A program made the translations under genes and the position numbers. DNA of 32,000 bases from contig NC_010814.1 in NCBI RefSeq assembly GCF_000020385.1, forward strand, positions 1,530,001 to 1,562,000, read 5' to 3'. This stretch comes from Trichlorobacter lovleyi SZ. Lineage in GTDB: Bacteria; Desulfobacterota; Desulfuromonadia; Geobacterales; Pseudopelobacteraceae. Shown here one piece after another: positions 1,498 through 16,891 of this stretch; positions within the stretch are counted from its first letter, which is position 1; each line of letters opens with the position of its first letter. Under the pieces are notes generated by a model. It saw only the letters and a list, made by a program, of their open reading frames with translations. It was not told where the DNA came from and did not search any database.

Positions 1498-3879
1498 CTA
1501 CTTGGTGGTTTTCAGGCCACGCTCGGTTGCACGGCTGAAGCTGTGGCAGAAGGAACAGTCATAGCCCTTGCTGGTGACGTGCTTGCTGTGCAGCGAGGTG
1601 AAGCTCGGCATGCTCTTGTTGCCGTGGCACTGGATGCAGACTACGGACTGGGCAGCCTTCATGGTGTAGCCCATCGACTTCAGGTTCATGTGGGTTGCCG
1701 GTACGCTGGCGGTGCCGTGGCAGGCAGCACACTGCAGGGCGTTGGCCTTGGGTGCCACGGTGTGGTTCAGCATCTGGTACTCGTCGGCCTTGACCATGCT
1801 GTAGGCATCGCCCGGGTTCAGACCCATGTTGGTCAGGCCGGACTGGATGGCACCGGCCACATCGGCGGTCTTGAAGTAGACCGAGGTGTTCAGGGCGATC
1901 AGCTTGCCGCTGGCAGTGTGCATCGGCTGGGTCGAGGTCTTGTACTTGAACGGATACAGCTTGGTGTTGGCGGTGTTGATGCCGCCGTTGGGACGGCTGA
2001 TCTTGTAGTTGCCGGTGGCCGGATCGATCACGGCCACATCATGCAGGTCATAGACCCAGGAGCTGCCGTCATAGAAGGCGTAGACCGGCTTCAGGTTGTT
2101 GGCACGGACAACGGTCGGCTCCCAGCGGTTGTTGGCCACTGACCATTCGGGGGTTACCCAGGTGCGGTCGGTTTCAGTGGACTGGTCACCAAAGCCGGTC
2201 ACGGTGTCCAGTACGGCATCAGCCGCCTTTCTGCCGTAGGAGGGGATATGGCAGGTCTGGCAGGCCACACGCTTCAGGTGGGTGTTGATGGCGGTGGTGG
2301 CATGACCGGCATTCAGGGCAGCCTTGTTGCTGTGGCAGCTGCTGGTTGCACAGCCGACGGTTACGGTGCTGTCGGTGGGGCGCAGGTCTGAGCCGCGACC
2401 GGCCACATGGTGGTTGGTGTAGGTGTGGCACTGCTGACAGGTCAGGTTGGCGCCGGTGGAGGCCATATGGACATCGTAGTTGCGGTCGGTGGTGGTGCCG
2501 TTGATTACTGCCAGGTCGCCACGCTTGAGGGCATCACCGCCGCCGCCCTTGGCATGGCACTGCAGACAGTTTGATTTAACCGGCTTGTGCAGGGTCTGCA
2601 CGGCCTGATCCATGGAGATGGTCATCTTGGCGGTGTCCGGCTCAAACAGGCCGGTGGTGGCGTTACGTACCCGCTTGTAGGCAACCTGGTGGCAGATCAG
2701 ACAGTCGATGTTCTGGGTGGCATCGGCAATGGTGCCCGGCTTGGCACCGGCACCGATATGGCATGAACCGCAGCCGTTCCAGTTGCCCAGGGTGTTGATG
2801 CAGTAGGCGTTGACGGCGGTGTTCAGTTTGCCGCCGGTTACCCCTGGTTTGTTGCTGATGGCGGCGTAGGGGGTCTCCCACTTGTAGTGGACCGAACCGG
2901 CCAGATCGGTGGCCTGTTTGGTGTGGCACTGCAGGCACATGGTGGTGCCGGTGTAGGTCAGACCGGCGTGGGGACCGCTGCCGCCGGTGGAACCGATGGT
3001 GTAGGTGGCAGTCTTTACCGCTTCACTGTTACCGGCTGTGTCGCGGGCGAAGTACTTCAGGGTGGTGGTGGCGCTGATGGTCAGCGGCGTACTGTAGACG
3101 GCAGAGGCGGTGGTGGGGGTGCTGCCGTTGGTGGTGTAGTAGATGGTGGCAGCCTCATTGGCTGTCAGTCTGACCGACTGCGCCGTGGTGTAGCTGCCCC
3201 CTGCCGGGGAAACAGAGGTGACCGGCGCCGTTGTATCAGCTGGTGGTGTTGTGCTGATGGTGTAGGTGGCAGTCTTTACCGCTTCACTGTTACCGGCTGT
3301 GTCGCGGGCGAAATACTTCAGGGTGGTGGTGGCGCTGATGGTCAGTGGTGCGCTGTAGACGGCAGAGGCGGTGGAGGGGGTGCTGCCGTTGGTGGTGTAG
3401 TAGATGGTGGCAGCCTCGTTGGCTGTCAGCCTGACCGACTGCGCCGTGGTGTAGTTGCCCCCTGCCGGGGAGACAGAGGTGACCGGCGCAATGGTGTCGG
3501 CGCTACTGGTTGCTACCTGGGGGTAGCTGTAGGCCGTTCTCTTGTTGCCATTATATTCAAACTCACCGCGAACTTCATACTTGCCGGTCCTGGCTGAACT
3601 GGAGAGTTTGTAGGCATAGGTATATTTTCCGCTGCCGGCGTTGCTCATGCTGGTCTTCACCAGTTCTCTGCCGGACGAGTCCTTGATTCTGACTTCACGT
3701 TTGCTGGGGGAGGTAATGCCGGTGCTGTCTTTTTTGAAGATGGCAGTGATGTTCATGGTCTGACCAGGGGTATAGCTGGTCTTGTCGGTGCTGATGCTCA
3801 GGGTGTAGCTGGCTGCTGAGGCCATTGATGTGACGGCAAGGGTCACGACAAAACAGACCAGGCCGGACAGATTCTTCAT
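1498..3879 (-). CDS. Secreted multiheme c-type cytochrome (9 CXXCH plus one CX4CH) with an N-terminal Ig-like region and two tandem CHB_HEX_C-like modules
   Basis: 793-aa ORF with signal peptide MKNLSGLVCFVVTLAVTSMASA. Heme motifs: CLQCH, CGSCH, CLICH, CLQCH, CQQCH, CATSSCH, CQTCH, CAACH, CIQCH, CSFCH. Two copies of ...NEAATIYYTTNGSTP.TASAVYS.PLTISATTTLKYFARDTAGNSE..., typical of the chitobiase/hexosaminidase C-terminal-like domain. Confidence 0.95.
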   Translation of the reverse strand: MKNLSGLVCFVVTLAVTSMASAASYTLSISTDKTSYTPGQTMNITAIFKKDSTGITSPSKREVRIKDSSGRELVKTSMSNAGSGKYTYAYKLSSSARTGKYEVRGEFEYNGNKRTAYSYPQVATSSADTIAPVTSVSPAGGNYTTAQSVRLTANEAATIYYTTNGSTPSTASAVYSAPLTISATTTLKYFARDTAGNSEAVKTATYTISTTPPADTTAPVTSVSPAGGSYTTAQSVRLTANEAATIYYTTNGSTPTTASAVYSTPLTISATTTLKYFARDTAGNSEAVKTATYTIGSTGGSGPHAGLTYTGTTMCLQCHTKQATDLAGSVHYKWETPYAAISNKPGVTGGKLNTAVNAYCINTLGNWNGCGSCHIGAGAKPGTIADATQNIDCLICHQVAYKRVRNATTGLFEPDTAKMTISMDQAVQTLHKPVKSNCLQCHAKGGGGDALKRGDLAVINGTTTDRNYDVHMASTGANLTCQQCHTYTNHHVAGRGSDLRPTDSTVTVGCATSSCHSNKAALNAGHATTAINTHLKRVACQTCHIPSYGRKAADAVLDTVTGFGDQSTETDRTWVTPEWSVANNRWEPTVVRANNLKPVYAFYDGSSWVYDLHDVAVIDPATGNYKISRPNGGINTANTKLYPFKYKTSTQPMHTASGKLIALNTSVYFKTADVAGAIQSGLTNMGLNPGDAYSMVKADEYQMLNHTVAPKANALQCAACHGTASVPATHMNLKSMGYTMKAAQSVVCIQCHGNKSMPSFTSLHSKHVTSKGYDCSFCHSFSRATERGLKTTK
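2402..2869. repeat. Near-identical segment shared with 61..528 (offset 2341) inside the two cytochrome paralogs
   Basis: Aligned by eye. About 4 mismatches over 181..528 versus 2522..2869. The flanking parts of the two genes are much more diverged or unrelated. Confidence 0.85.
2995..3516. repeat. Intragenic tandem duplication, 2 x 261 bp, encoding the two CHB_HEX_C-like modules
   Basis: gatggtgtaggtggcagtctttacc starts at both 2995 and 3256. The two units differ at only a few positions. The antisense ORF 2887..3597 in the track shows the same duplication. Confidence 0.85.
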
Positions 3880-4068: not shown

Positions 4069-4117
4069 AAAAAAACCAGATCACCCGTATCAATTGCTTG
4101 ACATTTCGGCGACCTGG
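4069..4117 (-). terminator. Leader (attenuator) terminator within the 5' UTR of the 793-aa cytochrome gene
   Basis: On the minus-strand RNA, CCAGGUCGCC (4117-4108) pairs with GGUGAUCUGG (4085-4076): 10 bp including 2 G-U pairs, with a 22-nt loop. It is followed directly by U7 (4075-4069). The 5' arm overlaps the 3' end of the putative aptamer. Confidence 0.6.
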
Positions 4118-4185
4118 CTGTCTCGGTGAGACCCTGTAGGCTTTCCGTCCTATCCTCACGGATAGTTTAGTAGTATCGATATCAT
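4105..4185 (-). ncRNA. Candidate GEMM-I (c-di-GMP-I / cGAMP class) riboswitch aptamer
   Basis: The minus-strand RNA reads CUAAA-[CUAUCC GUGA GGAUAG]-GACGGAAAGCC-UACAGG-[GUCUC ACC GAGAC]-AGCC-AGGUCGCC. The Vc2 aptamer as I recall it reads GCAAA-[CCAUUC GAAA GAGUGG]-GACGCAAAGCC-UCCGG...AGGUAGC. Shared features are a 6-bp hairpin with a GNRA loop, the GACGNAAAGCC core and AGGUNGC. Boundaries are approximate. Confidence 0.55.
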
Positions 4186-4287: not shown

Positions 4288-6675
4288 TTACTGGATGGTA
4301 ATGCTCTTGGAGGTGGCTTTCAGGGGGAGGAATTGCCCTGTGGCTGACAGGATACGTGTCTGGCCGATGGTGAGATTGGCGGTGCCTTTGCCTTTGGACC
4401 TGAAGATAAAACCGGCCAGCGTACCGCTGCCGGTGGCCCCGGTTGCGGTATCGGCTTGTTGCAGGGTGACGGTGACATTGCCTTTGACCGGGTCGTCCGT
4501 GGTGGTAAAGGCGTCCGGGCCGTTATCCTTGCCGAGTAGCGTCCCTTGTGCGGTTGAGAGCAGTTCCAGTAGTGCCGGTGTGTAGTTCAGTGAGAAACTG
4601 CCGCCCTTCATATCGGATACCCCTTCTGCGCTGACCAGCACCTTGAATGACTGACCGGGTACAGTTGAACTGGGAGCATTGATGGTGAGGGTATTCGGGA
4701 TGGCAGCAGGAGCAACGGGAGCACTGCTGACGGGCGGGGGTACTGAAGGGGCTGCCGGGGAAACAACCGGAACTGCCGGTCTGGCGGCAGCCGGAACCGC
4801 AGGTGGGGCTGACGGTTGAATTGCGGGCAGCGGCTGCACTGCAGGGCGGTCCTCCTTACTGCTTGAGAAGGATGTCAGGTTGCCTCGGGGGACGGTCACG
4901 CCCCTGACGAGCCTGGGTGTAATGGCCAGGATCAGCTCGGTCTTGTCGTTGTCGGTCTTGCTGTTTGACAAGAGCGGTCCGATCAGCGGGATGTCACCCA
5001 GCAGGAAGATCTTCTGTTTGCTGTCGCTGTTGCTGTGGGAGATCAGACCGCCGATGACACTGGTCTCACCGTCTTTGAGGCTTAGGACCGTATCCAGGTT
5101 GCGGGTGCCAATGGTGACCACCGTGGTGGCACTGTCCTTGCCCCCCACGGTCTCGCGGGAGATGATCGAGCTGACCTCAAGTCCCAGCTTGATGGAAACC
5201 TCGTTGTTGAGCTGGATGGTGGGCTCGGCATTGACCTTGACCCCCACATCCACGTACTGCACGTTGACCTGCGAGGTGGTGCCGGTGGTGGCCATGGTGG
5301 TGGTGGTGATCGGTACCCTGGTGCCGACATTGAACTTGGCCTTTTCCTTGTTCTTGACCCTGATCTTGGGATTGGAGAGTACCTCGCCGTTGGCCAGGGT
5401 CTTGCCGAAGTTGTACTGGGCATTGGGCACGGTGACATAACCGCCGAAGCTGTTGATGCTGAAGGCCTTGACCAGGTTCTTGATGGTGGCATCGGTGGTG
5501 ACCGTGGTGGATGTCGTGGAGGTGGTGTCCTTGAGCGTGGTTGCCAGCAGTTCGTTGCTGGGGGAGAACGCCCCCAGCTGCACATCGTAGTTGCTCAGCA
5601 GCAGACCGACGTTGTGGGCGTTCTTGTCACTGATCTCGATCACCTCGACATCCAGCACCACCTCTGCCTCCGGCAGGTCATGGGCCTCCAGGATCTTTTC
5701 GATCACATCGGTGACATCACTGGTATCCCGTACCACCAGGGCATTGGCATCCTCGTTGATATACAGCCGCCTGACCTGCAGCATGGTCCTGATCAGGTTG
5801 GCCGCCTTCTTGGCATCCAGGTGGTTCAGGTGGAAGGTGCGCAGCTGCATGTCCTGGTACTGCTTGGTCTTCTCCGCACTCTGCGGGTAGATCAATACCG
5901 TGCTCTCGTTGATAACGGCATAGTCAATCCTGTGCAGGGCGGCCAGCAGATCGAGTGCCTGGCGGAAACCGCTGTTTTCCAGGGTGAGGGTTGCGGGTTG
6001 ATCCTTGAAGTCAGGATCAAAGACAAAGTTGATGCCGGAATGCCGGGTGATGGTGCTGAATAACTCTTTCAGTCTGGTGCCGTTGGCCTTCAGCGTCAAC
6101 GGCTTCACCGATGTAAGCTGCAGATCCCGACCGGCCAGACTGGTCGCGGGGCTGCCTGCTACCCGTTGCAACGCTTCCTGATACAGTTTGGCATCGGGCC
6201 GGAGCTCAAAAGCCTGTTGAAAGGCACTGCGGGCATACTGCGGCTTGTTGGCCTTTTCAAAATCAAGCCCTTCGCGATAGATTTTGTCTGCCTGGTTGAG
6301 GCGTGCGGCCTGGTCAGCCAGCTGTCTGAACCGTTCCTGGGTCGGGTCAAGACTCGCTGCCGTCTGAAACTGTTCCTCAGCAGCGGCATACAGCGCTTTG
6401 GACATCAGCTCGGTACCGGCCTTGAAGCGTTGTTTGGCTGCTGCCTCACGGGCCCTGAAAAAGCTGAGGCGGTAGCTGCTCTCCGCAGCATTTTTGCTGA
6501 AGGCCTCGGCGTAGCGATACATGGCAGCCTCAAAGTTGCCTTCCTGCTCCAGCTCTTCTCCTTTGCTAAACGCCTTTTGGGCTGCGGAACAGCCCGGCAG
6601 GCAGAGTGCAGCCGCAAGCAGTATCCCGCTCAGGAGCCGGAGCGCGTGCTGTATTGTAGGCATCATTCTGGGCAT
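4288..6675 (-). CDS. Outer-membrane secretin lipoprotein with N-terminal TPR region, secretin core, Pro/Ala linker and C-terminal cohesin-like domain (PulQ-like architecture)
   Basis: Lipobox LPGC after MPRMMPTIQHALRLLSGILLAAALC. TPR-like helical repeats. A Secretin_N-like segment (LRTFHLNHLDAKKAANLIRTML). Secretin core (...VLSNPKIRVKNKEKAKFNVG...LLGDIPLIGPLLSN...LILAITPRLV). Tail GGSFSLNYTPALLELL is cohesin-like. The track ORF starts at a TTG (6705); I prefer ATG 6675, though 6666 or 6663 are possible. Confidence 0.9.
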   Translation of the reverse strand: MPRMMPTIQHALRLLSGILLAAALCLPGCSAAQKAFSKGEELEQEGNFEAAMYRYAEAFSKNAAESSYRLSFFRAREAAAKQRFKAGTELMSKALYAAAEEQFQTAASLDPTQERFRQLADQAARLNQADKIYREGLDFEKANKPQYARSAFQQAFELRPDAKLYQEALQRVAGSPATSLAGRDLQLTSVKPLTLKANGTRLKELFSTITRHSGINFVFDPDFKDQPATLTLENSGFRQALDLLAALHRIDYAVINESTVLIYPQSAEKTKQYQDMQLRTFHLNHLDAKKAANLIRTMLQVRRLYINEDANALVVRDTSDVTDVIEKILEAHDLPEAEVVLDVEVIEISDKNAHNVGLLLSNYDVQLGAFSPSNELLATTLKDTTSTTSTTVTTDATIKNLVKAFSINSFGGYVTVPNAQYNFGKTLANGEVLSNPKIRVKNKEKAKFNVGTRVPITTTTMATTGTTSQVNVQYVDVGVKVNAEPTIQLNNEVSIKLGLEVSSIISRETVGGKDSATTVVTIGTRNLDTVLSLKDGETSVIGGLISHSNSDSKQKIFLLGDIPLIGPLLSNSKTDNDKTELILAITPRLVRGVTVPRGNLTSFSSSKEDRPAVQPLPAIQPSAPPAVPAAARPAVPVVSPAAPSVPPPVSSAPVAPAAIPNTLTINAPSSTVPGQSFKVLVSAEGVSDMKGGSFSLNYTPALLELLSTAQGTLLGKDNGPDAFTTTDDPVKGNVTVTLQQADTATGATGSGTLAGFIFRSKGKGTANLTIGQTRILSATGQFLPLKATSKSITIQ

Positions 6676-6721
6676 GGGGCTATCTATAGCGTTTCCGGTT
6701 GCCAAGTAACAAGCGAAAGAT

Positions 6722-6868
6722 GAACAGGGCTTTTAAGAACGTTATGAGGAAGGCCGGATATAAGGCGCGCGGAGCACAGTGGCCGAGACATAACAAACAG
6801 TTAGGCGAGGGAGCGAGCACCGCGCAACGCAGTAGACGGCCTCCGGAATAGTTTTTCAAAGCCCTGTT
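6722..6868. repeat. 147-nt intergenic element bounded by a perfect 11-bp inverted repeat
   Basis: aacagggcttt (6722-6732) is the exact reverse complement of aaagccctgtt (6858-6868). An inner aggccg / cggcct pairing is also present. The element lies between the ABC-operon end and the secretin start. Confidence 0.4.
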
Positions 6869-7865
6869 AACCGCCCAGCCTGAAATTGGCGGTCAGCATC
6901 CGGTAGGAAACAAGGGCGGTGAACAGCAGGTAGCAGGCCAGCGACAGCAGGACCAGCCGTTGTTGCAGGCGGGACAGGTAGGGGGCCAGGCTGGGGCGTC
7001 TCCTGAACGGCATCAGCAGGCCGATGCTGCTGCCGCTGATCATGCCCCCCAAAAGCGTGGCGTAGAGCAGGTAACCGATATAGCCGTACTCTTGCTGCAG
7101 GATACAGAAGGGACAGTGGTGGGTGGGCAGTTCATAGTAATAGAGCCCGATAAATGAGATCAGGGCTGCCACGGAGACCACAAAGGCAAACGCGGAAAGC
7201 GCAGCATAGAGGTAGCCGCCGGTCCCTTTCAGATAGAGCCGGATGCCGCAGCAGGCGAGTACAGCCATGGTGCTGAAAAAGAGCGGCCGCATGATCCGGT
7301 ACGGCAGACCGGCCAGCTCTCCGGCGATGCTCGGCTTGTCGCTGCCGAACAGGCTGCCGCAGCAGGAGGTGATCATGTCCCCTTTAAGGTGCATGAAATA
7401 GTTGAACTGCAGCACGGTCTCAGCCAGTACCAGCAGCACCAGGCCCAGCAACAGAACGTATTTGGGCTTGATCAGCGGGTAGTCATAACCTCTGGTATCG
7501 GCGTGGTTGACAATCAGCCAGCAGCCTGCCAGCAGGCAGTTGATCAGTTTCAGGATCAGGGTCGGATAGCCGTAGCTGTTGACCTGCAGGGTGCCGGCCG
7601 CGCACATGGCGCCGGTAAACAGGATGTGCAGACCATCGGCGGTGTAGAGGTAGAGGAACAGGGAGATGGTCTGAAACAGCAGGGCGTAGCTCATGATCGT
7701 GGCGATCAGGTAAGTTCGCCGTTCAAGATTCAGCTGCAGTTCACTGCCGCTGGCAAGATCCCAGTTCTTCAGGATCCGGATGCCAAACCAGCCGGCATAG
7801 AGCAGCAGGCCGCTGACAATCAGCGAGGCGGTCATCAGCGCCAGTATGGCCGGGTGCTGGATCAC
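6867..7865 (-). CDS. Uncharacterised polytopic membrane protein (~9 predicted TM segments) with conserved-looking Cys motifs; last gene of the TonB/NosL/ABC operon
   Basis: 332-aa hydrophobic ORF. Its start overlaps the upstream stop by 4 nt (ATGA-type coupling at 7862-7865). Motifs: MCAAGT, SCCGS, CCG and HHCPFCILQQEY. Confidence 0.8.
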   Translation of the reverse strand: MIQHPAILALMTASLIVSGLLLYAGWFGIRILKNWDLASGSELQLNLERRTYLIATIMSYALLFQTISLFLYLYTADGLHILFTGAMCAAGTLQVNSYGYPTLILKLINCLLAGCWLIVNHADTRGYDYPLIKPKYVLLLGLVLLVLAETVLQFNYFMHLKGDMITSCCGSLFGSDKPSIAGELAGLPYRIMRPLFFSTMAVLACCGIRLYLKGTGGYLYAALSAFAFVVSVAALISFIGLYYYELPTHHCPFCILQQEYGYIGYLLYATLLGGMISGSSIGLLMPFRRRPSLAPYLSRLQQRLVLLSLACYLLFTALVSYRMLTANFRLGG

Positions 7866-8590
7866 GGCAACAGTTCCTGCCGGACAATCCGGCCATCACG
7901 CATCTCCAGCACCTGGTCTGCCAATGGCGAACTGTAGACAATCGGGTCATGGCTGGCGATCAGTACGGTCTTGCCACTGTCTTTCAGCTGGCCGATGCTC
8001 TCCATGAATGCTTGAGAAAGTTGACTGTCCAGGTGGGCGGTCGGCTCATCGGCAATAATGGCGATCGGGTTGTTGATCAGGGCGCGGGCAATGGCAACCC
8101 GCTGCAGTTCCCCGCCGGAGAGCCATTCCACCGGCGAGTTACGATGACGCAGCAGATCAAACTGTTCCATCAGCCCCAGTGCCCGCTGCTTGACCACCGG
8201 CTGCTGTTCGCCGGTGGGGTAGGCCGGCAGCATGATGTTCTGCAGGGCGCTGATCCCCTTGATCAGGTTAAACTGCTGAAAGATGAAACCAAAGGTGGAA
8301 CGGCGGATCTCGGTCAGGAACCGCTCCGGCAGGCTGGAACTGTCAAACCCCTCAGCTGACTCGCTTGCCTGAAAGAAGCTGGTCTCTACCCCCTGCAGCA
8401 TGATCCGCCCCGAACTTGGTCTGGTCATGCAGCCGATCAAGGCCAGCAGGGTGGTCTTGCCTGATCCGCTGGGGCCTTTCAGGATCGTCATGCTGCTGCG
8501 TGTAATGGTCAGGCTCACGTTATCCACCGCGGTAAAGCTGGTGGCCGGGCCGATGGCGAAGTTTTTGGTGACCTGGTTCAGTGCAATCAT
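7862..8590 (-). CDS. ABC transporter ATP-binding protein (MacB/LolD-like)
   Basis: Walker A GPSGSGKTT, signature LSGGELQR, Walker B IIADEPT, H-loop ASHD. Confidence 0.95.
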   Translation of the reverse strand: MIALNQVTKNFAIGPATSFTAVDNVSLTITRSSMTILKGPSGSGKTTLLALIGCMTRPSSGRIMLQGVETSFFQASESAEGFDSSSLPERFLTEIRRSTFGFIFQQFNLIKGISALQNIMLPAYPTGEQQPVVKQRALGLMEQFDLLRHRNSPVEWLSGGELQRVAIARALINNPIAIIADEPTAHLDSQLSQAFMESIGQLKDSGKTVLIASHDPIVYSSPLADQVLEMRDGRIVRQELLP

Positions 8591-8592
8591 GG

Positions 8593-9729
8593 TTATGACC
8601 TCATGGCTGCATCAGGGGCAATGGTGGCTGCCAGCCAGGCAGGGATAATGGTGGCCGCGGTGTAGGGCAGCACTGCAAGCACAAACAGCACCGAAAGCTG
8701 ATAGCCGTCAACAGCCGGCACCAGTTTGAACTGCGGGTACAGGATGGCCCAGCCTTTCAGGGCATGGGAGAACAGGGCGGCTGAGGAAAAGAAGACATGC
8801 AGGTAGGCCAGCAGTACACCGGCCAGGAAGGCGCTCAGCGAGATCACGGCTCCTTCCCAGAACTTCAGCAGCAGGACATCACCGGTCTCCCAGCCGATTG
8901 ACTTGAGGATGCCGATCTCCTTGCGCTCCTCTGCCGAGAGGCCGCTGGCCTTGTCCCAGGCAAAGATCACAAAGGAGAGCACTGCCGCTGCCAGGATTAC
9001 CACCATCATCCCGCCTCGCCAGTCAAACAGCGAATCATAGGTCCGCAACAGCTCGCTCTTCAGAATCGGGCGGGTGTCGGGAAACTGCTCAACAATCTTA
9101 TTGGCCACGGTCACCAGCTCACGGGGGTTGGCAACGGTCACTGCCAGGTCAGTGGCAACATCCTGCGGCATCCTGAACATGGTATGAAAATCCTCAGCTG
9201 CCATCAACACCAGATCAGCTGCCACCAGCTCCGAATGCTGCGGCAGGATACCGCTGACGGTCAGGAGCAGCGGCTTACCGCTATAGGAACGGAAGGTCAC
9301 CAGATCATCGGTCTTGATCCGCAGGTTTCCGGCAACGCCGCTGCCGATCATGATCGAACCGGGGGGGGGAGGCGCTGTATCCGGCACCAGCAGGGTGTAA
9401 TTGGCCTGAAAGACCGGGTCGTAGTAGTAGCCCCACAGGCGCGGCACCACCGCCGATACCCCGCGGATAGCGCCGATTTTCTCTGCATAGCCGACCGGTA
9501 TCAGGTCGTGGCGGCCGGCAATCATCCGCTGCACCACCATGTCGGGTGCCTCGGCCAGCAGCAGGGCCGCTTCCCGTTTCAGGGCCTGCACAAAAAAGAT
9601 CAGAGATGCAATCACAAAGATGATCAGGGTGTAGACCAGAAACAGGGAGATGTTTTTGGCCTTCCTCCGCATAAGTGAGGAGAGGGCAAAATCAAGGATA
9701 TTGCGGTGGCGGTTAAGGGCGTGGTGCAT
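8593..9729 (-). CDS. ABC transporter permease, FtsX/MacB-type (N-terminal TM, periplasmic domain, three C-terminal TMs)
   Basis: 378 aa. N-terminus ...FALSSLMRRKAKNISLFLV is typical of FtsX-family permeases. The C-terminal three-TM FtsX-like block includes ERKEIGILKSIGW. There is a 2-nt gap to the ATPase gene. Confidence 0.9.
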   Translation of the reverse strand: MHHALNRHRNILDFALSSLMRRKAKNISLFLVYTLIIFVIASLIFFVQALKREAALLLAEAPDMVVQRMIAGRHDLIPVGYAEKIGAIRGVSAVVPRLWGYYYDPVFQANYTLLVPDTAPPPPGSIMIGSGVAGNLRIKTDDLVTFRSYSGKPLLLTVSGILPQHSELVAADLVLMAAEDFHTMFRMPQDVATDLAVTVANPRELVTVANKIVEQFPDTRPILKSELLRTYDSLFDWRGGMMVVILAAAVLSFVIFAWDKASGLSAEERKEIGILKSIGWETGDVLLLKFWEGAVISLSAFLAGVLLAYLHVFFSSAALFSHALKGWAILYPQFKLVPAVDGYQLSVLFVLAVLPYTAATIIPAWLAATIAPDAAMRS

Positions 9730-10036
9730 AGGACCTCTGCAGGGTTGCGGGTGGTGTCACCAGTGAGCCGGATGGAAAATGCTCCAGGGCGGTCGGATGA
9801 TCCTGAAATGGCGCGTGCAGATCAGCCATGGCGGGATGACGGGTATAGCGGGCCTCGGTAAACAGGCAGAGATCGGTCAGGCGTAACCGGCGCACCAGTT
9901 GGGCCCGTTCCTGCAGCTCCGCGTTACGGGCGGTCCTGCTGCTGTGTGAGTGAATTCCCATCAGCAGCAGGACCGCCGTGCCGGTTGCGATCAGCAGTAT
10001 GAAGCCGGTGGAAGGGCGCATGGCTGCTCCGGTCAT
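9713..10036 (-). CDS. Small membrane-anchored hypothetical protein
   Basis: 107-aa ORF with one N-terminal TM (GFILLIATGTAVLLLMG). ATGA overlap with the upstream NosL stop and a 17-nt overlap with the permease start. No family recognised. Confidence 0.5.
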   Translation of the reverse strand: MTGAAMRPSTGFILLIATGTAVLLLMGIHSHSSRTARNAELQERAQLVRRLRLTDLCLFTEARYTRHPAMADLHAPFQDHPTALEHFPSGSLVTPPATLQRSYAPRP

Positions 10037-10503
10037 TCCAGTGTCTTCAGCAGGGCAGGAGTGATCTCATGAAACCTGACAATCCGTTTGCCTGCATGAT
10101 CTTTCAAAAACTCCTGCGCCTCGGCCAGCTTTGCAAGGGGGATCAGCTCATGCCCCATCGGTCCGTACACGTTGCTGCCGGTCACGTAGAAGGCGGTCCT
10201 GCCGTCAATCAGCTTCAGTGAATAGTAGTCCTTCACCTCAATGGCCGAGATCATGGCCGGTTTTCTGTCTGGTGCGTACCGGGACAGGTTGTTGAGGTAG
10301 CTGAACAGATCCTTGGCCCCGTCAAACCAGACTTGCCTACCGTCAGTGAATCTGATTGCAGCAGTCCAGGCCGGATACTTATGGACAAACATGCCGCAGA
10401 CCGGGCACTTGTCCTTTGGCCCCGGAGCTTGTGCTGCCAGAGTGACGGCGCTGTTCAGCCAGATGCAGGCAGTGACAGCAAACAGGAGCAGATAGCGGTT
10501 CAT
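10033..10503 (-). CDS. nosL: NosL-family (copper-chaperone-like) periplasmic/lipoprotein
   Basis: 156 aa with a signal peptide, the CPVCGM motif and NosL-like downstream conservation (FDGAKDLFSY..., GPMGHELIP). The symbol is used in the family sense only; no nosZ is present in the window. Confidence 0.8.
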   Translation of the reverse strand: MNRYLLLFAVTACIWLNSAVTLAAQAPGPKDKCPVCGMFVHKYPAWTAAIRFTDGRQVWFDGAKDLFSYLNNLSRYAPDRKPAMISAIEVKDYYSLKLIDGRTAFYVTGSNVYGPMGHELIPLAKLAEAQEFLKDHAGKRIVRFHEITPALLKTLE

Positions 10504-10571
10504 GGCTTGTTTCCTTTGCGGTGATCAGGACTGGCCGGATATCGTCAGATACCCGGCCAGGTTTATTCCAG

Positions 10572-11084
10572 CTAGTGATGACCGTCGTGCTTCATCTTCA
10601 TCATTTTGCGGCGTTCACGGATCATTCTGGTGTCATTGTACATATCTTCGTAGGCTGCCTTGATGGCGTCATCAAAGCTGCCCAGAGTCCCCTTGTGCGC
10701 CTTTATAAATGCCTCGGCATCCGCCTTGCTGGCAAAGGCCCACTTGGCCCGGGAGGTCATGACCCCCATCCTGTCACCGCCGATTACCCAGTGGGCGGTC
10801 TCTGCATCAATCAGCTTTTGGGTGGTGAAGTCCCCCACCTTGATGGAGGTCGGCATCTTGTCAATATTGTTGGCCAGTTCTACTGCCATGCAATGCAGGC
10901 TGCAGGTGCCGGTTGAACTGCCGTCCTGATAGGTCACCAGCATCCGGCTGTGGCTGAATCTGGTGCGGTCCATGCCGCAGTACTTACAGCTGTCCGGGCC
11001 TTCAACCTTGTCAGTGGCAGTCACCAGGGCAGCCGTTGTCAGTAAAAGGGTCAGGGTAGCCAGAAACTTCAGTAGGTTTTTCAT
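10572..11084 (-). CDS. Second NosL-like protein with His/Met-rich C-terminal tail
   Basis: Start moved to MKNLLKFLATL (ATG 11084), with AGGAGA 7 nt upstream. Contains a CKYCGM motif, CSLHC, and the tail RRKMMKMKHDGHH. Confidence 0.8.
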   Translation of the reverse strand: MKNLLKFLATLTLLLTTAALVTATDKVEGPDSCKYCGMDRTRFSHSRMLVTYQDGSSTGTCSLHCMAVELANNIDKMPTSIKVGDFTTQKLIDAETAHWVIGGDRMGVMTSRAKWAFASKADAEAFIKAHKGTLGSFDDAIKAAYEDMYNDTRMIRERRKMMKMKHDGHH

Positions 11085-11146
11085 TGTCTGTTCTCCTGTC
11101 TGGAATATGTGTAACGCGGTTTTTGCCTGCTGTCCATTGCAGCCCA

Positions 11147-13153
11147 CTAGAATTTATAGGCCATGGTCAGGTAGACGTTCCGTCCGTTTTCCGGAACGCG
11201 GTAGCCGACACCGCTGACAAAGGGGTCACGCAGATAAGACAGGTGGCTGTAGTACTGGGTGTCCAGAATGTTGTTGATGCCGCCGGTCACGGAGAACCCT
11301 TTGTACTGATAGCCTGCCTTCAGGTCAGTGGTTACCCACCCGGCAGTCTTTTGTTCGTTCAGGCTGCTGTCAATGCGATCCTGTTCGCGGCTGAGGGTCT
11401 CAAGCAGTTCGGCAAAGAAGCTGCCGTTGTCATAGCGGATGGAGATGGTGCCTTTCAGGGGCGGCATCTCGGACAGCGGGCGATTGCCGCTGATATTTCG
11501 CCCTTCGGTGTAGGAAAGGGTGCCCCTCAGAAACAGGTCGGCCGGCAATGAAACCTGGCTACCCAGTTCGGCACCCCAGATGCTGGCATGGATATTCTGA
11601 TAGCTCTTCAGGGTAGCGGAGGCCTGGTAGAAGTTCACGTAATCCTGCAGGTCGCTGTAAAAGATCGAGGCATTGACATAAAAACGATCCGTTGCGTACT
11701 TGGCTCCAAGGTCAGCCTGATGGTTGACGGTTGCCTTGAGGCCCTGGTTGCCGCGCCAGGCCGGGTTCCCCGGCAGATCAAGAAACAGTTCCTGCTGGTC
11801 GGGGGTGCGGGTGCCCCGTCCCAGGCCGGTGAAGATCACCAGTTCCTTGAAGGGGGTGTAGTTCAGCTGCAGGTTTGCGCTGATGGTGCTGAATTCCTTT
11901 GAACTGCCGGCAGTCACCATGGTGTTGGCTCTGTCTGCCTTGGCCCGGGTCAGATCGCCACGTACGCCGCCGGTCAGGCTTAGTTTGCCGCCAAGCGGCA
12001 GGGTATACTCACCGAACAGGCCGAAGTTTTCAATCGTCACATCCGGGATCATGGCAAGGTCGCGGTAGTTAAAATACATGGCCCGGCGATTGGTGGCATC
12101 CCAGTTGCGGTTGTAGTAGTCCAGCCCGCTCTTCAGACTGCCCGGTCCGAGCTTCAGCTCTGCCTGCAGTTTTGCTCCATAGGTCTGGGTGGAGGCATCG
12201 GTCTGCATGGAATAGAACCGTGGTGATGTGCTGGAGCTGAAGCGGCTGCGGTCATCCATCAGGTGTTCAACCCGGTCCCAGTAGACCTGCAGCTTCAGAT
12301 CCTGCAGCAGTGCCGAGAGGTTCTGAATCCGGTAGCTCCAGTTCATACGGTCGGTCCTGTCGTAGTCGGCATCCATCTTCAGGTAGGGGTAGAGGACATG
12401 GTCCGCATCCTGATAGGTATAGCTGAGCTCCGTGCGTGAATTGGCAGTCGGGTTAAGCCCCAGCTTGCCCCAGCCGGTGTTGATCTCGTAGGCCTTGGAG
12501 TCAATGGCGGTGTTCTTGTAACGGTTCGGGCTGGTTGCGGGATAGATCTGGGTCAGCAGCTTGCCGTTGCCGGACTGGGGGACATCGGAATATTTGTAGG
12601 CGTAGCCCATCAGGGCATCATAGCGCTCTGTGCCATAGGATGCGGTGGCCGCAGCATTGGTGCCGTGCCAGTCGCCGTATCCCAGGCTGAGCTCACCGCC
12701 AAATCCCTTGCCCGGCCGTTTGGTCTGGGCGTCAATCAGACCCCCCAGGCCACCGGGGTTGGAGAGATCATAGGGGCCCTTGATGATCCTGACCTGCTCA
12801 ATCTCGGCAAAATCATAGTGGAACGACGGCGGGTCCATTCGGGAGGGGCAGGCGCCATGCAGGCGGACGCCATCCACCAGGACGTTGATATTGTCCTTCT
12901 GAAAGCCGCGCAGCACCACATCATTGGCAATTGCCCCCTTGTGGACAATGTTGATTCCTTCCACCTGTTTCAGGGCCTCACCCATATCCCTGGCTGGACT
13001 TTCACGAACTTCCCGGACAGAAAGACTCTCTTCCTTCGGTGATTCCTTGTCGGCGCGGACAATGATTTCATCAAGCAGCAGATGTTCGGCACGGGCTGTC
13101 TGGGCTGTCAGTGTCAGCAGCAGCGCCAGCAGCGAAAGCTGTTGTACGGTCAT
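11147..13153 (-). CDS. TonB-dependent outer-membrane receptor
   Basis: 668 aa. Signal peptide, then a plug region (DEIIVRA...VEGINIV...LRGF), a long beta-barrel, and a C-terminus ending ...YLTMAYKF. GGAGGA RBS. Confidence 0.95.
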   Translation of the reverse strand: MTVQQLSLLALLLTLTAQTARAEHLLLDEIIVRADKESPKEESLSVREVRESPARDMGEALKQVEGINIVHKGAIANDVVLRGFQKDNINVLVDGVRLHGACPSRMDPPSFHYDFAEIEQVRIIKGPYDLSNPGGLGGLIDAQTKRPGKGFGGELSLGYGDWHGTNAAATASYGTERYDALMGYAYKYSDVPQSGNGKLLTQIYPATSPNRYKNTAIDSKAYEINTGWGKLGLNPTANSRTELSYTYQDADHVLYPYLKMDADYDRTDRMNWSYRIQNLSALLQDLKLQVYWDRVEHLMDDRSRFSSSTSPRFYSMQTDASTQTYGAKLQAELKLGPGSLKSGLDYYNRNWDATNRRAMYFNYRDLAMIPDVTIENFGLFGEYTLPLGGKLSLTGGVRGDLTRAKADRANTMVTAGSSKEFSTISANLQLNYTPFKELVIFTGLGRGTRTPDQQELFLDLPGNPAWRGNQGLKATVNHQADLGAKYATDRFYVNASIFYSDLQDYVNFYQASATLKSYQNIHASIWGAELGSQVSLPADLFLRGTLSYTEGRNISGNRPLSEMPPLKGTISIRYDNGSFFAELLETLSREQDRIDSSLNEQKTAGWVTTDLKAGYQYKGFSVTGGINNILDTQYYSHLSYLRDPFVSGVGYRVPENGRNVYLTMAYKF

Positions 13154-13221
13154 GGCAGTAGTCCTCCATAGCGTTGTCAGTCGTAAGGATCAAATGTCGA
13201 TTACGGCGCTGATTGTCTGGA

Positions 13222-13791
13222 TCAGACAGGCTTTGGAGGGGGGAGCAACGGCCTGGATGAGGGCGAGTGCAGAGTGCTGACGGGGGAGGGTGGATAGGGT
13301 GATTTTTCAGGCGGCACAATGACCACCCGGTAGATAAACGGCATGCCTTCATTGCCCTGGCTATTAAGCAGTGCGGACTGGCTGCTGTCACCGCAGGGGC
13401 AGCCGCAGCTGAGAACCGTCTCTGCAGCCTGTGGTGCGGGCAGTTCGGCCTGCCGGGTAGTGATGGTTTCTTCCAGTACGGCGTGGACCGATTCGGCGGA
13501 CAGCGTGGTGTGACAGCAATCAGCCGTGTTGGCGGCAGATTCCGGAGGACGGTTTTCCGGCTGCTTTTTCTTCCAGCAACAGCAGGTGCGATTCAATTGA
13601 CTCTGCAGGGAACAGCCGTCCCGCGTGCAGTCTCCGCTGCAGGCAACCCGGCCGTCGTGGGCATGCTGATGCGGTTGGAGCGCCAGTGAGGGCAACGGTC
13701 CCGCTGCAATCAGCAGGTAGATGGCGGTCATCAGGGCGGCAATGCCCCGTCGCAGCGGTCTCAGAGAGGTATGTGCGGGTGTCGGTGGCAT
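13222..13791 (-). CDS. Cys/His-rich secreted or membrane-anchored hypothetical protein; first gene of the operon
   Basis: I prefer ATG 13791 (MPPTPAHTSL...), with AGGAG 7 nt upstream, over the track's TTG at 13824. One TM/signal segment (IAALMTAIYLLIAAGPL). Motifs HQHAHD, CSGDCTRDGC, CCCW, DCCH and CGCPCG, followed by a Pro-rich tail. Confidence 0.65.
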   Translation of the reverse strand: MPPTPAHTSLRPLRRGIAALMTAIYLLIAAGPLPSLALQPHQHAHDGRVACSGDCTRDGCSLQSQLNRTCCCWKKKQPENRPPESAANTADCCHTTLSAESVHAVLEETITTRQAELPAPQAAETVLSCGCPCGDSSQSALLNSQGNEGMPFIYRVVIVPPEKSPYPPSPVSTLHSPSSRPLLPPPKPV

Positions 13792-13819: not shown

Positions 13820-13835
13820 ATCAAGAACCGTGCCG
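13820..13835 (-). promoter_or_regulatory. Sigma-54-like -24/-12 element upstream of the Cys-rich/TonB/NosL/ABC operon
   Basis: The minus strand reads CGGCACG-GTTC-TTGAT. The GG-to-TTG spacing matches TGGCACG-N4-TTGCW, but -12 has GA instead of GC. It ends about 28 nt upstream of ATG 13791, leaving room for a short leader with AGGAG. It is part of a 19-mer repeated at 17032..17050. Confidence 0.5.
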
Positions 13836-13897
13836 TTGGTGCTAAGTGTCTGATATTAAACGTTTGTTTAAATGTTGTTGAGTTGGTTGGTTTTTTG

Positions 13898-13917
13898 TTG
13901 TCTTATTTTGAGACAGG
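13898..13917. promoter_or_regulatory. Inverted-repeat motif TGTCTTA-TTT-TGAGACA (candidate activator binding site / UAS) in the divergent intergenic region
   Basis: TTGTCTTATTTTGAGACAGG is 16/20 identical to 16897..16916. It lies about 70 nt upstream of the -24 element at 13835 and about 60 nt upstream of the kinase start. Confidence 0.4.
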
Positions 13918-13973: not shown

Positions 13974-15557
13974 ATGGCACCTCACCGGAAAAAGCTTTGT
14001 GCCCTGCTGGATGACTCGGGCAAAACAGTTGGCAGGGCAGAGATAATCCAGCAATTTCCCGCCCTGATCTGGCACTCGGGCTTTGATGCCCGTTGTGATT
14101 ATTTTAACCAGACCTGGCTGGCGTTTACCGGCCGGACCCTGGCGCAGGAACTGGGGGATGGCTGGGCAGAGGGGGTTCACCCCGATGATCTGCCGGATTG
14201 TCTCACAACCTACCGGGAGGCGTTTGCGGCCCGGCAGCCGTTTACCATGGAATACCGTCTGCGCTACCATGACGGTTCCTATCGCTGGATTGTTGATCAC
14301 GGTGCTCCCCACTATGCCATTGACGGCTGTTTCTGCGGTTATATCGGCAGTTGCTACGACATTACCCCCCAAAAAGAGTCCGAACGGTCACTGCAGATCT
14401 CCCGGGTTGAGCTGGAGCAGCGGATAGAGCAGTGTTCCTGTGATCTGCAAAAAAGCCATGATCTTCTGAACAGTCTCTCCCAGCAGGTTCCCGGCGGGAT
14501 CTACCAGTTTCAGATGTTTTCCGACGGCCGCTACTGCGTCCCCTATGCCAGCCGGACCATGCTTGAGCTTTTCGAGATTACCCCCGAAGATATTCAGTAC
14601 GATGCAACCTGTCTCTTTGATCGGGTCCTGCCGGATGAGCTGCCCGGCGTGATCGACTCGATTCAGGAGTCTGCCGTTACCCAGACCCCCTGGCACCGCG
14701 AATTCCGGGCGGCTATTCCGTCGAAAGGGATACGCTGGTTCCAGGCTGATTCACGCCCCCGCCGGCAGCCGGACAACAGTGTGATCTGGTGTGGTTTTGT
14801 CACTGATATTACCGAACGCAAGGAGCTTGAACGCCAGCTGGTTGAGGCGCAGCGTCTGGAGTACATCGGCCAGCTGGCAGCCGGGGTGGCCCATGAGGTC
14901 AGAAACCCCCTGAATGCCATCCTGACCGTCACCGAGGCGCTTTTCCGGGAGGAGGGGGTCGAGGGCAATCAAACCTTGACTCCCTATATTGAGCATATCC
15001 GTTCCCAGGTTGTCCGGCTTGCCCGGCTGATGAACGATCTGCTCAGCCTGGGACGGCGCCAGCAGGAAGATCAACTGGTGCCGCTGGCACTGGCTGAATT
15101 TTGCCGCCAGACCGCACAGCTCTGGCAGGAGAGTAGTCCGGCGGGCCACCGTCGGCTGGCGCTGGAGATCCCCCCTGAGGCGGAAACCGCGCTGGCCCGT
15201 GCGGACAAAGATCGTTTGCAGCAGGTGTTGTTTAACCTCCTGGATAACGCCGGGCAGCACAGTCCGCCGGAGAGCAGCATCAGCCTGGTACTTGACCAGC
15301 CTCACGTCTCTGCCGGGGAGCGACACCTGCGGTTGCGGGTGATTGATCAGGGCAGCGGGGTGGCGCCTGGCCTGTATGAAAGGGCTTTTGAACCGTTTTT
15401 TACCACCCGCAAGGGGGGCACCGGATTGGGGCTTGCCCTGGTGAAACAGTTTGTCGATCAGATGGGAGGGATGGTGCAGATCTGTAATAATGATCCTGAA
15501 CCGGGCTGCACGGTTACGTTGCAGTTACAGCCGGCGCCGGAGGAATGCCTGTCATGA
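13974..15557 (+). CDS. Soluble sensor histidine kinase with two PAS domains
   Basis: 527 aa with no TM segment. PAS-like blocks (WIVDHGAP..., GIRWFQADSRP...VTDITERKE). H-box AAGVAHEVRNPLNAI. N/G boxes NLLDNAGQH and GTGLGLALV. Confidence 0.95.
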   Translation: MAPHRKKLCALLDDSGKTVGRAEIIQQFPALIWHSGFDARCDYFNQTWLAFTGRTLAQELGDGWAEGVHPDDLPDCLTTYREAFAARQPFTMEYRLRYHDGSYRWIVDHGAPHYAIDGCFCGYIGSCYDITPQKESERSLQISRVELEQRIEQCSCDLQKSHDLLNSLSQQVPGGIYQFQMFSDGRYCVPYASRTMLELFEITPEDIQYDATCLFDRVLPDELPGVIDSIQESAVTQTPWHREFRAAIPSKGIRWFQADSRPRRQPDNSVIWCGFVTDITERKELERQLVEAQRLEYIGQLAAGVAHEVRNPLNAILTVTEALFREEGVEGNQTLTPYIEHIRSQVVRLARLMNDLLSLGRRQQEDQLVPLALAEFCRQTAQLWQESSPAGHRRLALEIPPEAETALARADKDRLQQVLFNLLDNAGQHSPPESSISLVLDQPHVSAGERHLRLRVIDQGSGVAPGLYERAFEPFFTTRKGGTGLGLALVKQFVDQMGGMVQICNNDPEPGCTVTLQLQPAPEECLS

Positions 15558-16891
15558 AACCGCAGATTTTGCTGATTGAAGACTGTGCCGTAACCCGCTT
15601 CGGAGTGGTCCGTTATTTTTCAAAGGACGGCTATCAGATCAGTGAAGCCGGATCACTGGCCGAGGCCACCAGGTTGATGGCTGAGCGACGTTTTGACCTG
15701 ATTATCATTGATGTCAACCTGCCCGACGGTAACGGCCTTGACTTGATCAGAGCCGAACGGGAGGCCCAGAATCTGGTGCCGATTATTGTGGTTACCGGCG
15801 CCGGAGATATCCCCCTGGCGGTTGAGGCGATGCAGTGCGGCGCCGACAACTTTCTGACCAAACCGCTTGATATGCCGGCCCTTTCGATTTCGCTGGCCAA
15901 ATCCCTTGAGCTGGGAACGCTTAAACGGCAGTCAATGGCCCGCAAGCGGATGGAAAAACAGCTGGGCATCTTTTTTGGCGCCACACCGGCCATGCAGGAG
16001 GTGCAACAGGTTGCCCGGATGGCTGTTGACAACGCCCATCCGGTGCTGATCACCGGTGAAACCGGTACCGGCAAGGGGATGCTGGCCAAGTGGATTCACC
16101 AGCAGGGCTGCCGTGCCCAGTACGAGTTTGTTGAGTTGAACTGCTCAAGTCTGCGGGGGGAGATGCTCTCCCGCGAGCTGTTCGGTGCCCAGCGGGGGGC
16201 CTACACCTCGGCCGATCAGGACCGTCGCGGGCTGGTTGATGTTGCTGACCGCGGCAGTCTGTTTCTGGACGAGATCGGCGATATGAGCAGTGAAGTGCAG
16301 GCCCAGTTTCTCAAACTGCTTGAAGACAAGACTTACCGGCGGCTGGGGGATGTCAAACTGCTGAAAAGCGACTTCCGGCTGATCTGCGCCACCCACCGCG
16401 ACCTGCATGCCTTCTGTGCCGATGGTCAGTTTCGGCAGGATCTGTTCTACCGGATCAACCTGATCCATATCCATCTTCCACCTCTCAGGGAGCGCCGGGA
16501 GGACTTGCCGGCCATTACCTCCTACCTGCTCAACCTGCTGGGGGCAACTGATCAGGTGCTGACTGACGAGGTGCGAGGGCTGCTGTTCTCCTATGACTGG
16601 CCCGGCAATATCCGTGAAATGCGCAACGTGCTGGAGCGGGCCCTGCTGCTGACCCCGCCGGGCGGCACCCTGCGGCACTCACTGTTTTCCTGTATAAACG
16701 GTGGGCAGCGGCCCTGTCCAATCCATCTGTCTGCAGAGCCTCAGACCGTGCAGCAGGTTGAAACGGCCCATATTCAGGCCGTCCTTGCCCAGCATGGCGG
16801 TAATGTGGATAAGGCCGCCAAGGCATTAAACCTTTCCCGCGCCACCCTCTATCGCCGCCTCAAGCAACTCAGAGATGAGGGAGGCTGCTGA
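15554..16891 (+). CDS. NtrC-family sigma-54-dependent response regulator (REC, AAA+, Fis-type HTH)
   Basis: REC domain (ILLIEDC...DLIIIDVNLPDGNG). Walker A GETGTGKG, Walker B LFLDEIGDM, sigma-54 contact loop variant GAYTSA, HTH ...AAKALNLSRATLYRRLK. ATG 15554 makes an ATGA overlap with the kinase stop and sits 9 nt after GGAGGA; the in-frame ATG 15545 is an alternative. Confidence 0.95.
   Translation: MKPQILLIEDCAVTRFGVVRYFSKDGYQISEAGSLAEATRLMAERRFDLIIIDVNLPDGNGLDLIRAEREAQNLVPIIVVTGAGDIPLAVEAMQCGADNFLTKPLDMPALSISLAKSLELGTLKRQSMARKRMEKQLGIFFGATPAMQEVQQVARMAVDNAHPVLITGETGTGKGMLAKWIHQQGCRAQYEFVELNCSSLRGEMLSRELFGAQRGAYTSADQDRRGLVDVADRGSLFLDEIGDMSSEVQAQFLKLLEDKTYRRLGDVKLLKSDFRLICATHRDLHAFCADGQFRQDLFYRINLIHIHLPPLRERREDLPAITSYLLNLLGATDQVLTDEVRGLLFSYDWPGNIREMRNVLERALLLTPPGGTLRHSLFSCINGGQRPCPIHLSAEPQTVQQVETAHIQAVLAQHGGNVDKAAKALNLSRATLYRRLKQLRDEGGC

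Follow-up and report, generated by a model that had tools for sequence, protein, structure and literature searches.

A conserved NosL and type VII ABC gene core and its copper context in Trichlorobacter lovleyi

What task could bring a TonB-dependent receptor, two NosL-like proteins and a MacB/FtsX-type ATP-binding cassette (ABC) transporter together in a single operon? We address this question for eight genes, g1 to g8 (6867-13791, minus strand), in a 32,000-nucleotide stretch of the genome of Trichlorobacter lovleyi SZ (contig NC_010814.1, positions 1,530,001 to 1,562,000; hereafter the window, whose first letter is position 1). The original prediction treated this octet as one envelope-spanning system and left its substrate and direction of transport open. 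Comparison of gene neighbourhoods across genomes shows that the conserved unit is instead a five-gene core, which consists of one NosL-family gene (NosL-b, g4), g5, the permease gene (g6), the ATPase gene (g7) and g8. We read the locus as a system under sigma-54 control that acquires copper and, driven by ATP, hands it off in the periplasm, serving a multicopper oxidase that is encoded nearby, and we give this reading a probability of about 0.5.

A five-gene core across genomes

A genome scan with the permease yielded 409 relatives, and the best 80 loci were analyzed. These loci come from Trichlorobacter, other Geobacterales, Holophagaceae, Nitrospirota, Syntrophaceae, Desulfobulbaceae and others, and the permease of the window is nearest to those of Trichlorobacter (92-93% identity). 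The denominators given for individual genes are the numbers of loci with enough flanking sequence for the gene concerned. The g5 gene adjoins the permease gene in 78 of 78 loci. The ATPase gene does so on the same strand in 75 of 78 loci and g8 is adjacent on the same strand in 70 of 73; for each of these two genes, three more loci have it inverted nearby. NosL-b is located at most 1.3 kb upstream of the permease gene in 65 of 73 loci. The other NosL-type gene of the window, NosL-a (g3), has counterparts upstream in 25 of 71 loci, and the receptor gene (g2) in 5 of 62, or about seven in all when locus L002 and the window are counted. Homologs of the permease number more than 5000.

Based on these counts and on a distant variant of the module, we conclude that the gene order is not specific to this strain and that the receptor is an accessory to the core, found in Trichlorobacter and a few Geobacteraceae. 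The octet as first proposed is not a conserved unit, although the order of its core genes recurs in other genomes. In three Geobacteraceae loci the receptor gene is followed by a TonB gene. The distant variant (locus L086, 5609-11110) comprises, in this order, genes for a small protein, a permease, an ATPase, a g8 homolog (E = 1e-54), a 173-residue protein, a NosL protein and a TolC-like outer-membrane efflux protein; the first four are arranged as in the core, whereas NosL is downstream of them. The TolC-like gene hints that some versions of the module connect to an outer-membrane duct.

Within the window, the eight genes have the layout that was originally described. All are on the minus strand, and the junctions from g1 to g8 are, in order, gaps of 68, 62 and 68 nucleotides (nt), overlaps of 4 and 17 nt, a gap of 2 nt and an overlap of 4 nt. 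No sigma-70-like promoter was found within 6867-13791 (2.6 expected), and the four terminator-like matches in the same interval are at chance level (4.9 expected). Because g5, g6, g7 and g8 are adjacent in essentially all of the 80 related loci, the arrangement is not attributable to chance. Control of the operon by a riboswitch was considered and rejected: an Rfam scan gave no cobalamin or other metal-related riboswitch for the operon, and its sole match, a c-di-GMP-I element at 4105-4181, is downstream and unrelated.

The ABC transporter and two uncharacterized partners

The permease gene g6 (8593-9729, minus strand) encodes a protein that matches FtsX (PF02687) with 28.5 bits, above the cut-off of 25.5. 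In an AlphaFold2 model with a predicted local distance difference test (pLDDT) score of 78.5, there are four transmembrane helices (residues 23-59, 224-261, 282-320 and 342-368) and a beta-rich periplasmic domain (residues 64-223) between the first and the second. Foldseek matched this model, with a probability of 1.0, to LolE (E = 2.8e-15), LolC, MacB (E = 9e-13, TM score 0.64), HrtB, YbbP, BceB and FtsX, and it also matched YtrF; against the periplasmic domains of LolC and LolE the TM scores are 0.52-0.61, normalized by target length. Based on the four-helix model with its periplasmic domain and on the Foldseek matches, we assign g6 to the type VII ABC permeases (MacB/LolC/FtsX fold), in agreement with the MacB/FtsX type that had been predicted.

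The ATPase gene g7 (7862-8590, minus strand) matches ABC_tran (E = 1.6e-25), and the Walker A, signature, Walker B and H-loop motifs of its product are intact. The nearest NCBIfam models are FtsE, MacB and LolD. For g6 and g7, all of the NCBIfam equivalog cut-offs were missed, with 42.5 bits against 362 for lolCE, 151.5 against 307.75 for LolD, 155.8 against 264.85 for FtsE and 152 against 966 for MacB. No partner genes of the LolA/LolE, MacA/TolC or EnvC kinds were found in the window, and no ATPase domain is fused to g6. Known roles of type VII ABC proteins are the extraction of lipoproteins, drugs, haem and lipids and the activation of hydrolases. A published review describes the superfamily as one of mechanotransmission, with known systems whose action is outward or periplasmic (PMC5985334).

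The other two members of the core besides NosL-b, g5 and g8, have no family assignment and were not singled out in the original prediction. The product of g5 (9713-10036, minus strand; 107 residues) has a single N-terminal hydrophobic segment and a conserved His-containing region (LTDLxLFTEARYTRHP...FQDHP...EHFPSGS), and gave no match in Pfam or NCBIfam. The product of g8 (6867-7865, minus strand) is a 332-residue protein with eight transmembrane (TM) segments. Its homologs number more than 4000 and the family forms 1132 clusters at 50% identity; all of the homologs are unnamed or annotated as hypothetical, and none has a Pfam domain. Searches with g8 gave no match in Pfam, even at E = 10, in NCBIfam, or among PDB sequences, even with a 40-sequence profile, and neither DUF2318 nor YHS was detected up to E = 10 in g8 or in 10 distant homologs. 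The g8 model has a pLDDT of 88 and a predicted TM score (pTM) of 0.85, and a Foldseek search of the PDB found no matching fold (best E = 0.22, TM score <0.33). Two other leads on g8 were followed and rejected. Comparison of its two halves with hhalign (probability 0.7%) did not indicate an internal duplication of four plus four TM segments, and domain fusions gave no functional hint, as the top 150 representatives are all stand-alone proteins of about 320-346 residues or fragments.

The invariant motifs of g8, GAMCAAG (residues 85-91), SCC (167-169) and HHCPFC (249-254), are located in three short loops, and five Cys and one His are invariant down to 29-37% identity. The count of Lys and Arg residues, 9.1 in the odd loops against 5.1 on the opposite side, suggests by the positive-inside rule that the Cys loops face the periplasm. 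These loops bear on an alternative in which g8 is a membrane thiol-disulfide oxidoreductase, an analogue of DsbD, CcdA or ScsB, that keeps the Cys residues of NosL, SCO1 and g1 reduced while the ABC proteins supply or couple reducing power. Such a relay would be in keeping with the invariant CxxC (CPFC), the CC pair and the single Cys in the three loops, with the thioredoxin-fold SCO1 and TlpA-like proteins that recur nearby, and with the reducing-power model proposed for FetBCD-FetEF of Campylobacter jejuni. However, no similarity of g8 to DsbD, CcdA, DsbB, VKOR or DUF2318 was detected, and movement of reductant is not known for type VII ABC proteins. The HH-C-P-x-C motif, moreover, may resemble intramembrane Cu(I) sites such as the CPC motif of copper P-type ATPases. 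We consider a redox relay unlikely.

The same loops could instead line a metal path through the eight TM segments, with g8 as an inner-membrane permease that receives copper from NosL, is gated or energized by the ABC proteins and completes a route from the outer membrane to the cytoplasm. We know of no type VII ABC importer, most loci lack the receptor, and the apparent clients (SCO1, the oxidase and the MofC-like protein) all have signal peptides and a periplasmic site of action. Although a TonB-dependent importer is encoded upstream in the window, and although a published view ties the metallation of cuproenzymes to the cytosolic copper pool (PMC7558416), import into the cytoplasm seems to us quite improbable.

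In the reading that we prefer, copper stays in the periplasm. We infer that copper is the substrate of the core, that metal flows toward periplasmic clients, that g8 has a role in the hand-off and that g5 and g8 are physically associated with the ABC complex. A bolder version, which we regard as possible rather than probable, is that the core is an unrecognized ATP-driven metallation machine, in which a type VII ABC mechanotransducer and a Cys/His-lined 8-TM protein of new fold would pass Cu(I) from the membrane to chaperones of the periplasm or in the other direction, and which would not be homologous to NosDFY.

Copper context and shared sigma-54-like promoters

The receptor gene g2 (11147-13153, minus strand) has a Plug domain (PF07715, E = 1.9e-14) and a TonB_dep_Rec barrel (PF00593, E = 9.8e-39), and its best PDB match is OprC of Pseudomonas aeruginosa (E = 2.6e-40). 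The copper ligands of OprC form a CxxxM-HxM set, Cys143/Met147/His323/Met325 (PMC8610252). In the alignment, GACPSRM of g2 is placed on GACPNRM of OprC and EHLMD on DHIMD, so that C102-PSR-M106 in the plug and H297-L-M299 in the barrel of g2 occupy all four of these positions. The CPSRM and HLMD motifs are invariant across the 7 of 7 receptor orthologs that were recovered. The top NCBIfam model is TonB-copper (TIGR01778), but the score of 254.7 bits is below the equivalog cut-off of 472.45, and we therefore name g2 OprC-like rather than an OprC ortholog. The first gene of the operon, g1 (13222-13791, minus strand), encodes a 189-residue Cys-rich protein that is exported or anchored. It has about nine conserved Cys, in the motifs CxGxC..GC, CCCW and CC, and a Pro-rich C-terminus, is without a match in Pfam or NCBIfam, and is confined to receptor-bearing loci (cluster c17, 8 loci). 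Its ATG at 13791 is preceded by an AGGAG ribosome-binding site, and a start at the TTG of the open reading frame (ORF) that extends to 13824 is unlikely.

Both NosL-like proteins belong to the NosL family (PF05573, cut-off 24 bits), with 54.5 bits (E = 2e-14) for the periplasmic NosL-a (g3, 10572-11084, minus strand) and 102 bits (E = 4e-29) for the core chaperone NosL-b (g4, 10033-10503, minus strand). With these matches, the family assignments of the original prediction (TonB-dependent receptor, two NosL proteins, FtsX permease and ABC_tran ATPase) are all borne out in Pfam. The KCPVCGM and GPMG motifs of NosL-b align with ECHLCGM/GAMG in structure 7OG7 and with ECHVCGM/GAMG in 7OSF, the solved structures in this alignment being from Shewanella and Pseudomonas. 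NosL-a, whose MKNLL start is common to its orthologs, is 30% identical to NosL-b and forms its own subfamily; its consensus from 17 loci has CKYCGM (CxxCGM) and an extra CSxHC pair. Whereas the canonical NosL of nos clusters is a lipoprotein, a lipobox is not a conserved feature here: a lipobox-like motif occurs in 7 of 37 NosL-b and in 0 of 17 NosL-a orthologs, and most of these proteins have plain signal peptides. The His/Met-rich tail of g3, which had been taken as a sign of a relay between the two NosL proteins, shows no conservation among the 17 NosL-a orthologs, and we no longer use it as evidence. A mercury connection through MerB and NosL was also dropped, as the literature gives structural homology only and nothing on the module.

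Heavy metals in general can be bound by the NosL/TRASH fold, and the core might accordingly handle another thiophilic metal (Zn, Ni, Co, Hg or Cd) or a metallophore, with the copper context of this locus being a local recruitment. The receptor score below the TonB-copper cut-off would allow this, as would the many core loci, a majority, that have no oxidase or receptor nearby. The exact set of OprC ligands is nevertheless present, the window contains no metallophore biosynthesis genes, and genes for SCO1, CusAB and YtkA are repeatedly found beside the core in distant lineages. We judge another metal to be very improbable.

Copper-related genes are also found on the other side of the operon, on the plus strand. 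They encode an FKBP isomerase (FKBP_C, MofB-like; 17669-18331), a SCO1/SenC protein with CTTIC (CxxxC; 18335-18937), a MofC-like protein with a cytochrome c and a binding-protein domain (Peripla_BP_6) and the haem motif CVSCH (18934-20625), a 127-residue exported protein (20610-20993), a small ORF (21292-21555) and a MofA/OmpB-type multicopper oxidase of 1601 residues (21624-26429; Cu-oxidase_2). The oxidase has the copper-ligand blocks HLH, HDH, HPIHFH and HCHILSHEENDMM (HCHxxxHxxxxM) as well as Ig/Fn-type domains. It is Sec-exported, and SCO1, the oxidase and the MofC-like protein all carry signal peptides. Published descriptions of the Leptothrix MofABC and Geobacter OmpB (GSU1394-1398) clusters include the isomerase MofB, the cytochrome c MofC with a periplasmic binding domain and the SCO1 copper chaperone GSU1398 (PMC5566968). 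Within 8 kb of the module, SCO1 is encoded in 17 of 80 loci, the MofC-like protein of about 560 residues in 16 of 80, FKBP in 16 of 80 and a large multicopper oxidase in 6-7 of 80. The SCO1 and MofC-like (Peripla_BP_6) genes are directly upstream of the core in L081-L083, L010, L031, L054 and L073. We infer that the oxidase is a client of the module.

At the 3' end of the oxidase gene (25248-26423, plus strand), a 297-bp unit is repeated in tandem; its 4.0 copies are 99% identical and encode four near-identical 99-residue Y_Y_Y-type domains; this suggests a recent expansion or an assembly-prone region. Just downstream of g8 is a gene (4288-6705, minus strand) for a secretin whose N-terminus is STN/FecR_C-like and whose C-terminal domain is a cohesin, and the same gene follows the operon in L002, L003, L004 and L007. 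OmpB is reported to be secreted through an atypical type II system, and by analogy the secretin could be the exit route of the oxidase.

Further neighbours in distant loci are genes for a CusA-type resistance-nodulation-division (RND) pump, CusB with a YHS domain, a YtkA-like protein, a TlpA-like redoxin and TonB. The presence by the module of the first three in several of these loci, the TolC-like gene in one module variant (L086) and the outward or periplasmic action described for known type VII systems (PMC5985334) speak for copper or silver detoxification, in which the type VII ABC proteins, g8 and NosL would expel or sequester periplasmic or membrane Cu(I) and the oxidase, like CueO or PcoA, would oxidize Cu(I). 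In the window, however, the module shares its operon with an OprC-type importer, and P. aeruginosa down-regulates OprC under copper stress (PMC8610252). SCO1, FKBP and MofC-like genes accompany MofA/OmpB clusters and not resistance operons (PMC5566968), and there is no MacA-type adaptor within the window. Detoxification thus appears to us an unlikely function, and supply of copper to the oxidase the better reading of the locus.

The operon and the oxidase genes are also connected by candidate regulatory sites. Divergent from g1 are genes for a PAS histidine kinase (13974-15557, plus strand) and an NtrC-type sigma-54 activator (15545-16891, plus strand), and kinase and regulator genes recur beside the module in other loci. 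A sigma-54-like promoter, CAACGGCACGGTTCTTGAT (GGCAC-N5-TTGA; 13820-13838, minus strand), is located 29 nt upstream of the g1 ATG. A second copy of CAACGGCACGGTTCTTGAT, perfect over 19 nt and inverted relative to the first, precedes the receiver, FKBP, SCO1 and MofC-like genes (17032-17050, plus strand), and a third sigma-54-like promoter, CGGCATGCTCTTTGCT (21151-21166, plus strand), precedes the small ORF and the oxidase gene. A candidate activator-binding site, CTGTCTCA within TGTCT-N7-AGACA (13899-13916, minus strand), precedes the operon promoter by about 75 nt; the CTGTCTCA/TGAGACAG element is present there in a single copy (13909-13916). Near the second promoter, a perfect 16-nt palindrome, TGAGACAGCTGTCTCA (16889-16904, plus strand), overlaps the stop codon of the activator gene, and near the third, a perfect 18-nt inverted repeat contains the TGAGACAG/CTGTCTCA element (21041-21081, plus strand). 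Each sigma-54-like site thus has TGAGACAG/CTGTCTCA elements about 75-135 nt upstream. The octamer CTGTCTCA occurs seven times in the window against 1.0 expected, a number never reached in shuffled sequences, and five of the seven copies fall within the three regulatory regions.

The promoter and upstream block are kept in Trichlorobacter loci L003 and L001, in one of which g1 and the receptor gene are absent and the promoter directly precedes NosL-a; sigma-54-like sites are also found upstream of the operon in L015, L037, L042 and L044. Based on the shared promoters and upstream motif beside a sigma-54 activator, the three transcription units would form one regulon under that activator, a proposal made from DNA motifs. 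The second unit begins with a single-domain response-regulator receiver (about 17063-17515, plus strand). If the ATG at 17063, just past the sigma-54-like promoter, is the start, the N-terminus of the receiver is Cys-rich (MSSPASHTCCRPDCLCDR), and this extension could sense metal or redox state; a longer receiver ORF from 16940 would enclose the promoter copy.

Taken together, these data allow a scheme to be proposed. The OprC-like receptor, where present, would bring ionic copper across the outer membrane, and periplasmic NosL-a and NosL-b would take up Cu(I) on their CxxCGM sites. A homodimer of the permease g6 with the ATPase g7 would hydrolyze ATP in the cytoplasm and so drive conformational work on the far side of the inner membrane, either at its outer surface or within the periplasm. 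This work, with the participation of g5 and g8, would load copper onto, or release it from, NosL and the Cys/His site of g8. The copper would then pass to SCO1 and to the Sec-exported MofA/OmpB-type oxidase, which may fold with the help of the MofB-like isomerase.

Several observations weigh against this scheme. The receptor does not reach the copper-receptor cut-off, the topology of g8 has the positive-inside count as its single source, and the -12 element of two of the promoters is TTGA instead of TTGC. Most core loci have no oxidase within 8 kb, and the client may differ there or be encoded elsewhere. The Cus-type efflux neighbours in some loci and the TolC-like gene of L086 fit copper export equally well.

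With respect to the original prediction as a whole, its parts, families and operon structure stand, whereas the unit, the relay argument and the openness of the substrate do not: the receptor keeps the four OprC copper ligands and the module is tied to SCO1, MofB-like, MofC-like and MofA/OmpB-like genes. One of the options it raised, extraction and hand-off of a metal in the periplasm, is the one that we favour.

Two other features of the window are apart from these genes. The c-di-GMP-I (GEMM-I) riboswitch on the minus strand at 4105-4181 (42.4 bits, above the gathering score) precedes a gene for a 793-residue multihaem cytochrome with MG2, Fn3_assoc and CHB_HEX_C domains (1498-3879, minus strand). 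Many GEMM-I elements of Geobacter sense cyclic GMP-AMP (cGAMP) and control genes of extracellular electron transfer. At the other end, the region 26474-31986 (minus strand) has a lower GC content (0.45-0.52 against about 0.58) and contains unrelated polysaccharide genes, which encode a sugar transferase, a DegT aminotransferase, a GDP-mannose dehydratase, a GNAT protein and a GT4 glycosyltransferase.

Comparison with known systems

In NosDFYL, an ABC complex powers the NosL-dependent delivery of copper to NosZ. This system (7OG7, 7OSF-7OSJ, 7ZNQ) may be the nearest functional analogue of the module, as both encode a NosL-family chaperone by an ABC ATPase and permease and both have the presumed job of ATP-assisted metallation of an exported cuproenzyme. 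The differences are substantial. The permease of the module has the LolC/MacB fold and is not of the NosY type, Nos systems have no counterparts of g5 and g8, and the associated enzyme is a MofA/OmpB-type oxidase; none of the window genes scanned belongs to the NosZ, NosD or NosY families.

The transporter itself resembles LolCDE, MacAB-TolC, FtsEX, HrtBA, YbbAP and BceAB in that its permease has four TM helices, the first two of which flank a large periplasmic domain. The module is set apart by a single permease gene without a fused ATPase domain, and its partners are NosL, g5 and g8 instead of MacA, LolA or EnvC. The receptor is similar to OprC/NosA (PDB 6FOK, 6Z8Q) in its plug, barrel and complete CxxxM-HxM copper site, but is encoded beside NosL and ABC genes, whereas OprC is encoded beside FoxB-like PA3789. 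The oxidase unit matches MofABC of Leptothrix and OmpB GSU1394-1398 of Geobacter sulfurreducens by composition (FKBP, SCO1, MofC-like protein and large oxidase), whereas published descriptions of those clusters include neither a NosL/type VII ABC/g8 module nor a TonB-dependent receptor.

Taken singly, receptor, NosL proteins and ABC fold belong to established families. What is new is the conserved five-gene combination; the two uncharacterized families, one of which has a confident predicted fold without a solved relative; and the connection with MofA/OmpB-type oxidases, which is seen in gene order and in common signals that are of sigma-54 type as judged from their motifs. We found no description in the searchable literature of NosL combined with FtsX, MacB, a type VII ABC system, a TonB-dependent receptor or SCO1 as a module. 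The results bear on how anaerobes of sulfidic, copper-poor sediments supply copper to exported cuproenzymes, for which the module, with homologs in the thousands and widespread in anaerobic lineages, is a candidate supply line. If our reading is true, metal trafficking would be an addition to the known roles of type VII ABC systems, and in the bolder version the core would be the first of them dedicated to a metal ion.

A further parallel is the FetMP-FetABCDEF system of C. jejuni, in which an 8-TM Cys-rich protein that carries a YHS domain is encoded, together with an ABC transporter and thioredoxins, beside P19, a periplasmic protein that depends on copper. Its parts resemble those of the module (8-TM Cys-rich protein, TRASH/YHS-type metal domain, ABC proteins and thioredoxin-fold proteins), and we take FetB and FetC to be of the FtsX type. 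Fet differs in having two permease genes and in serving iron uptake, and g8 has neither DUF2318 nor YHS. In the bolder version, the core might also explain the FetABCD-type modules that are encoded beside copper-dependent proteins, and the parallel to iron uptake in Campylobacter can be tested.

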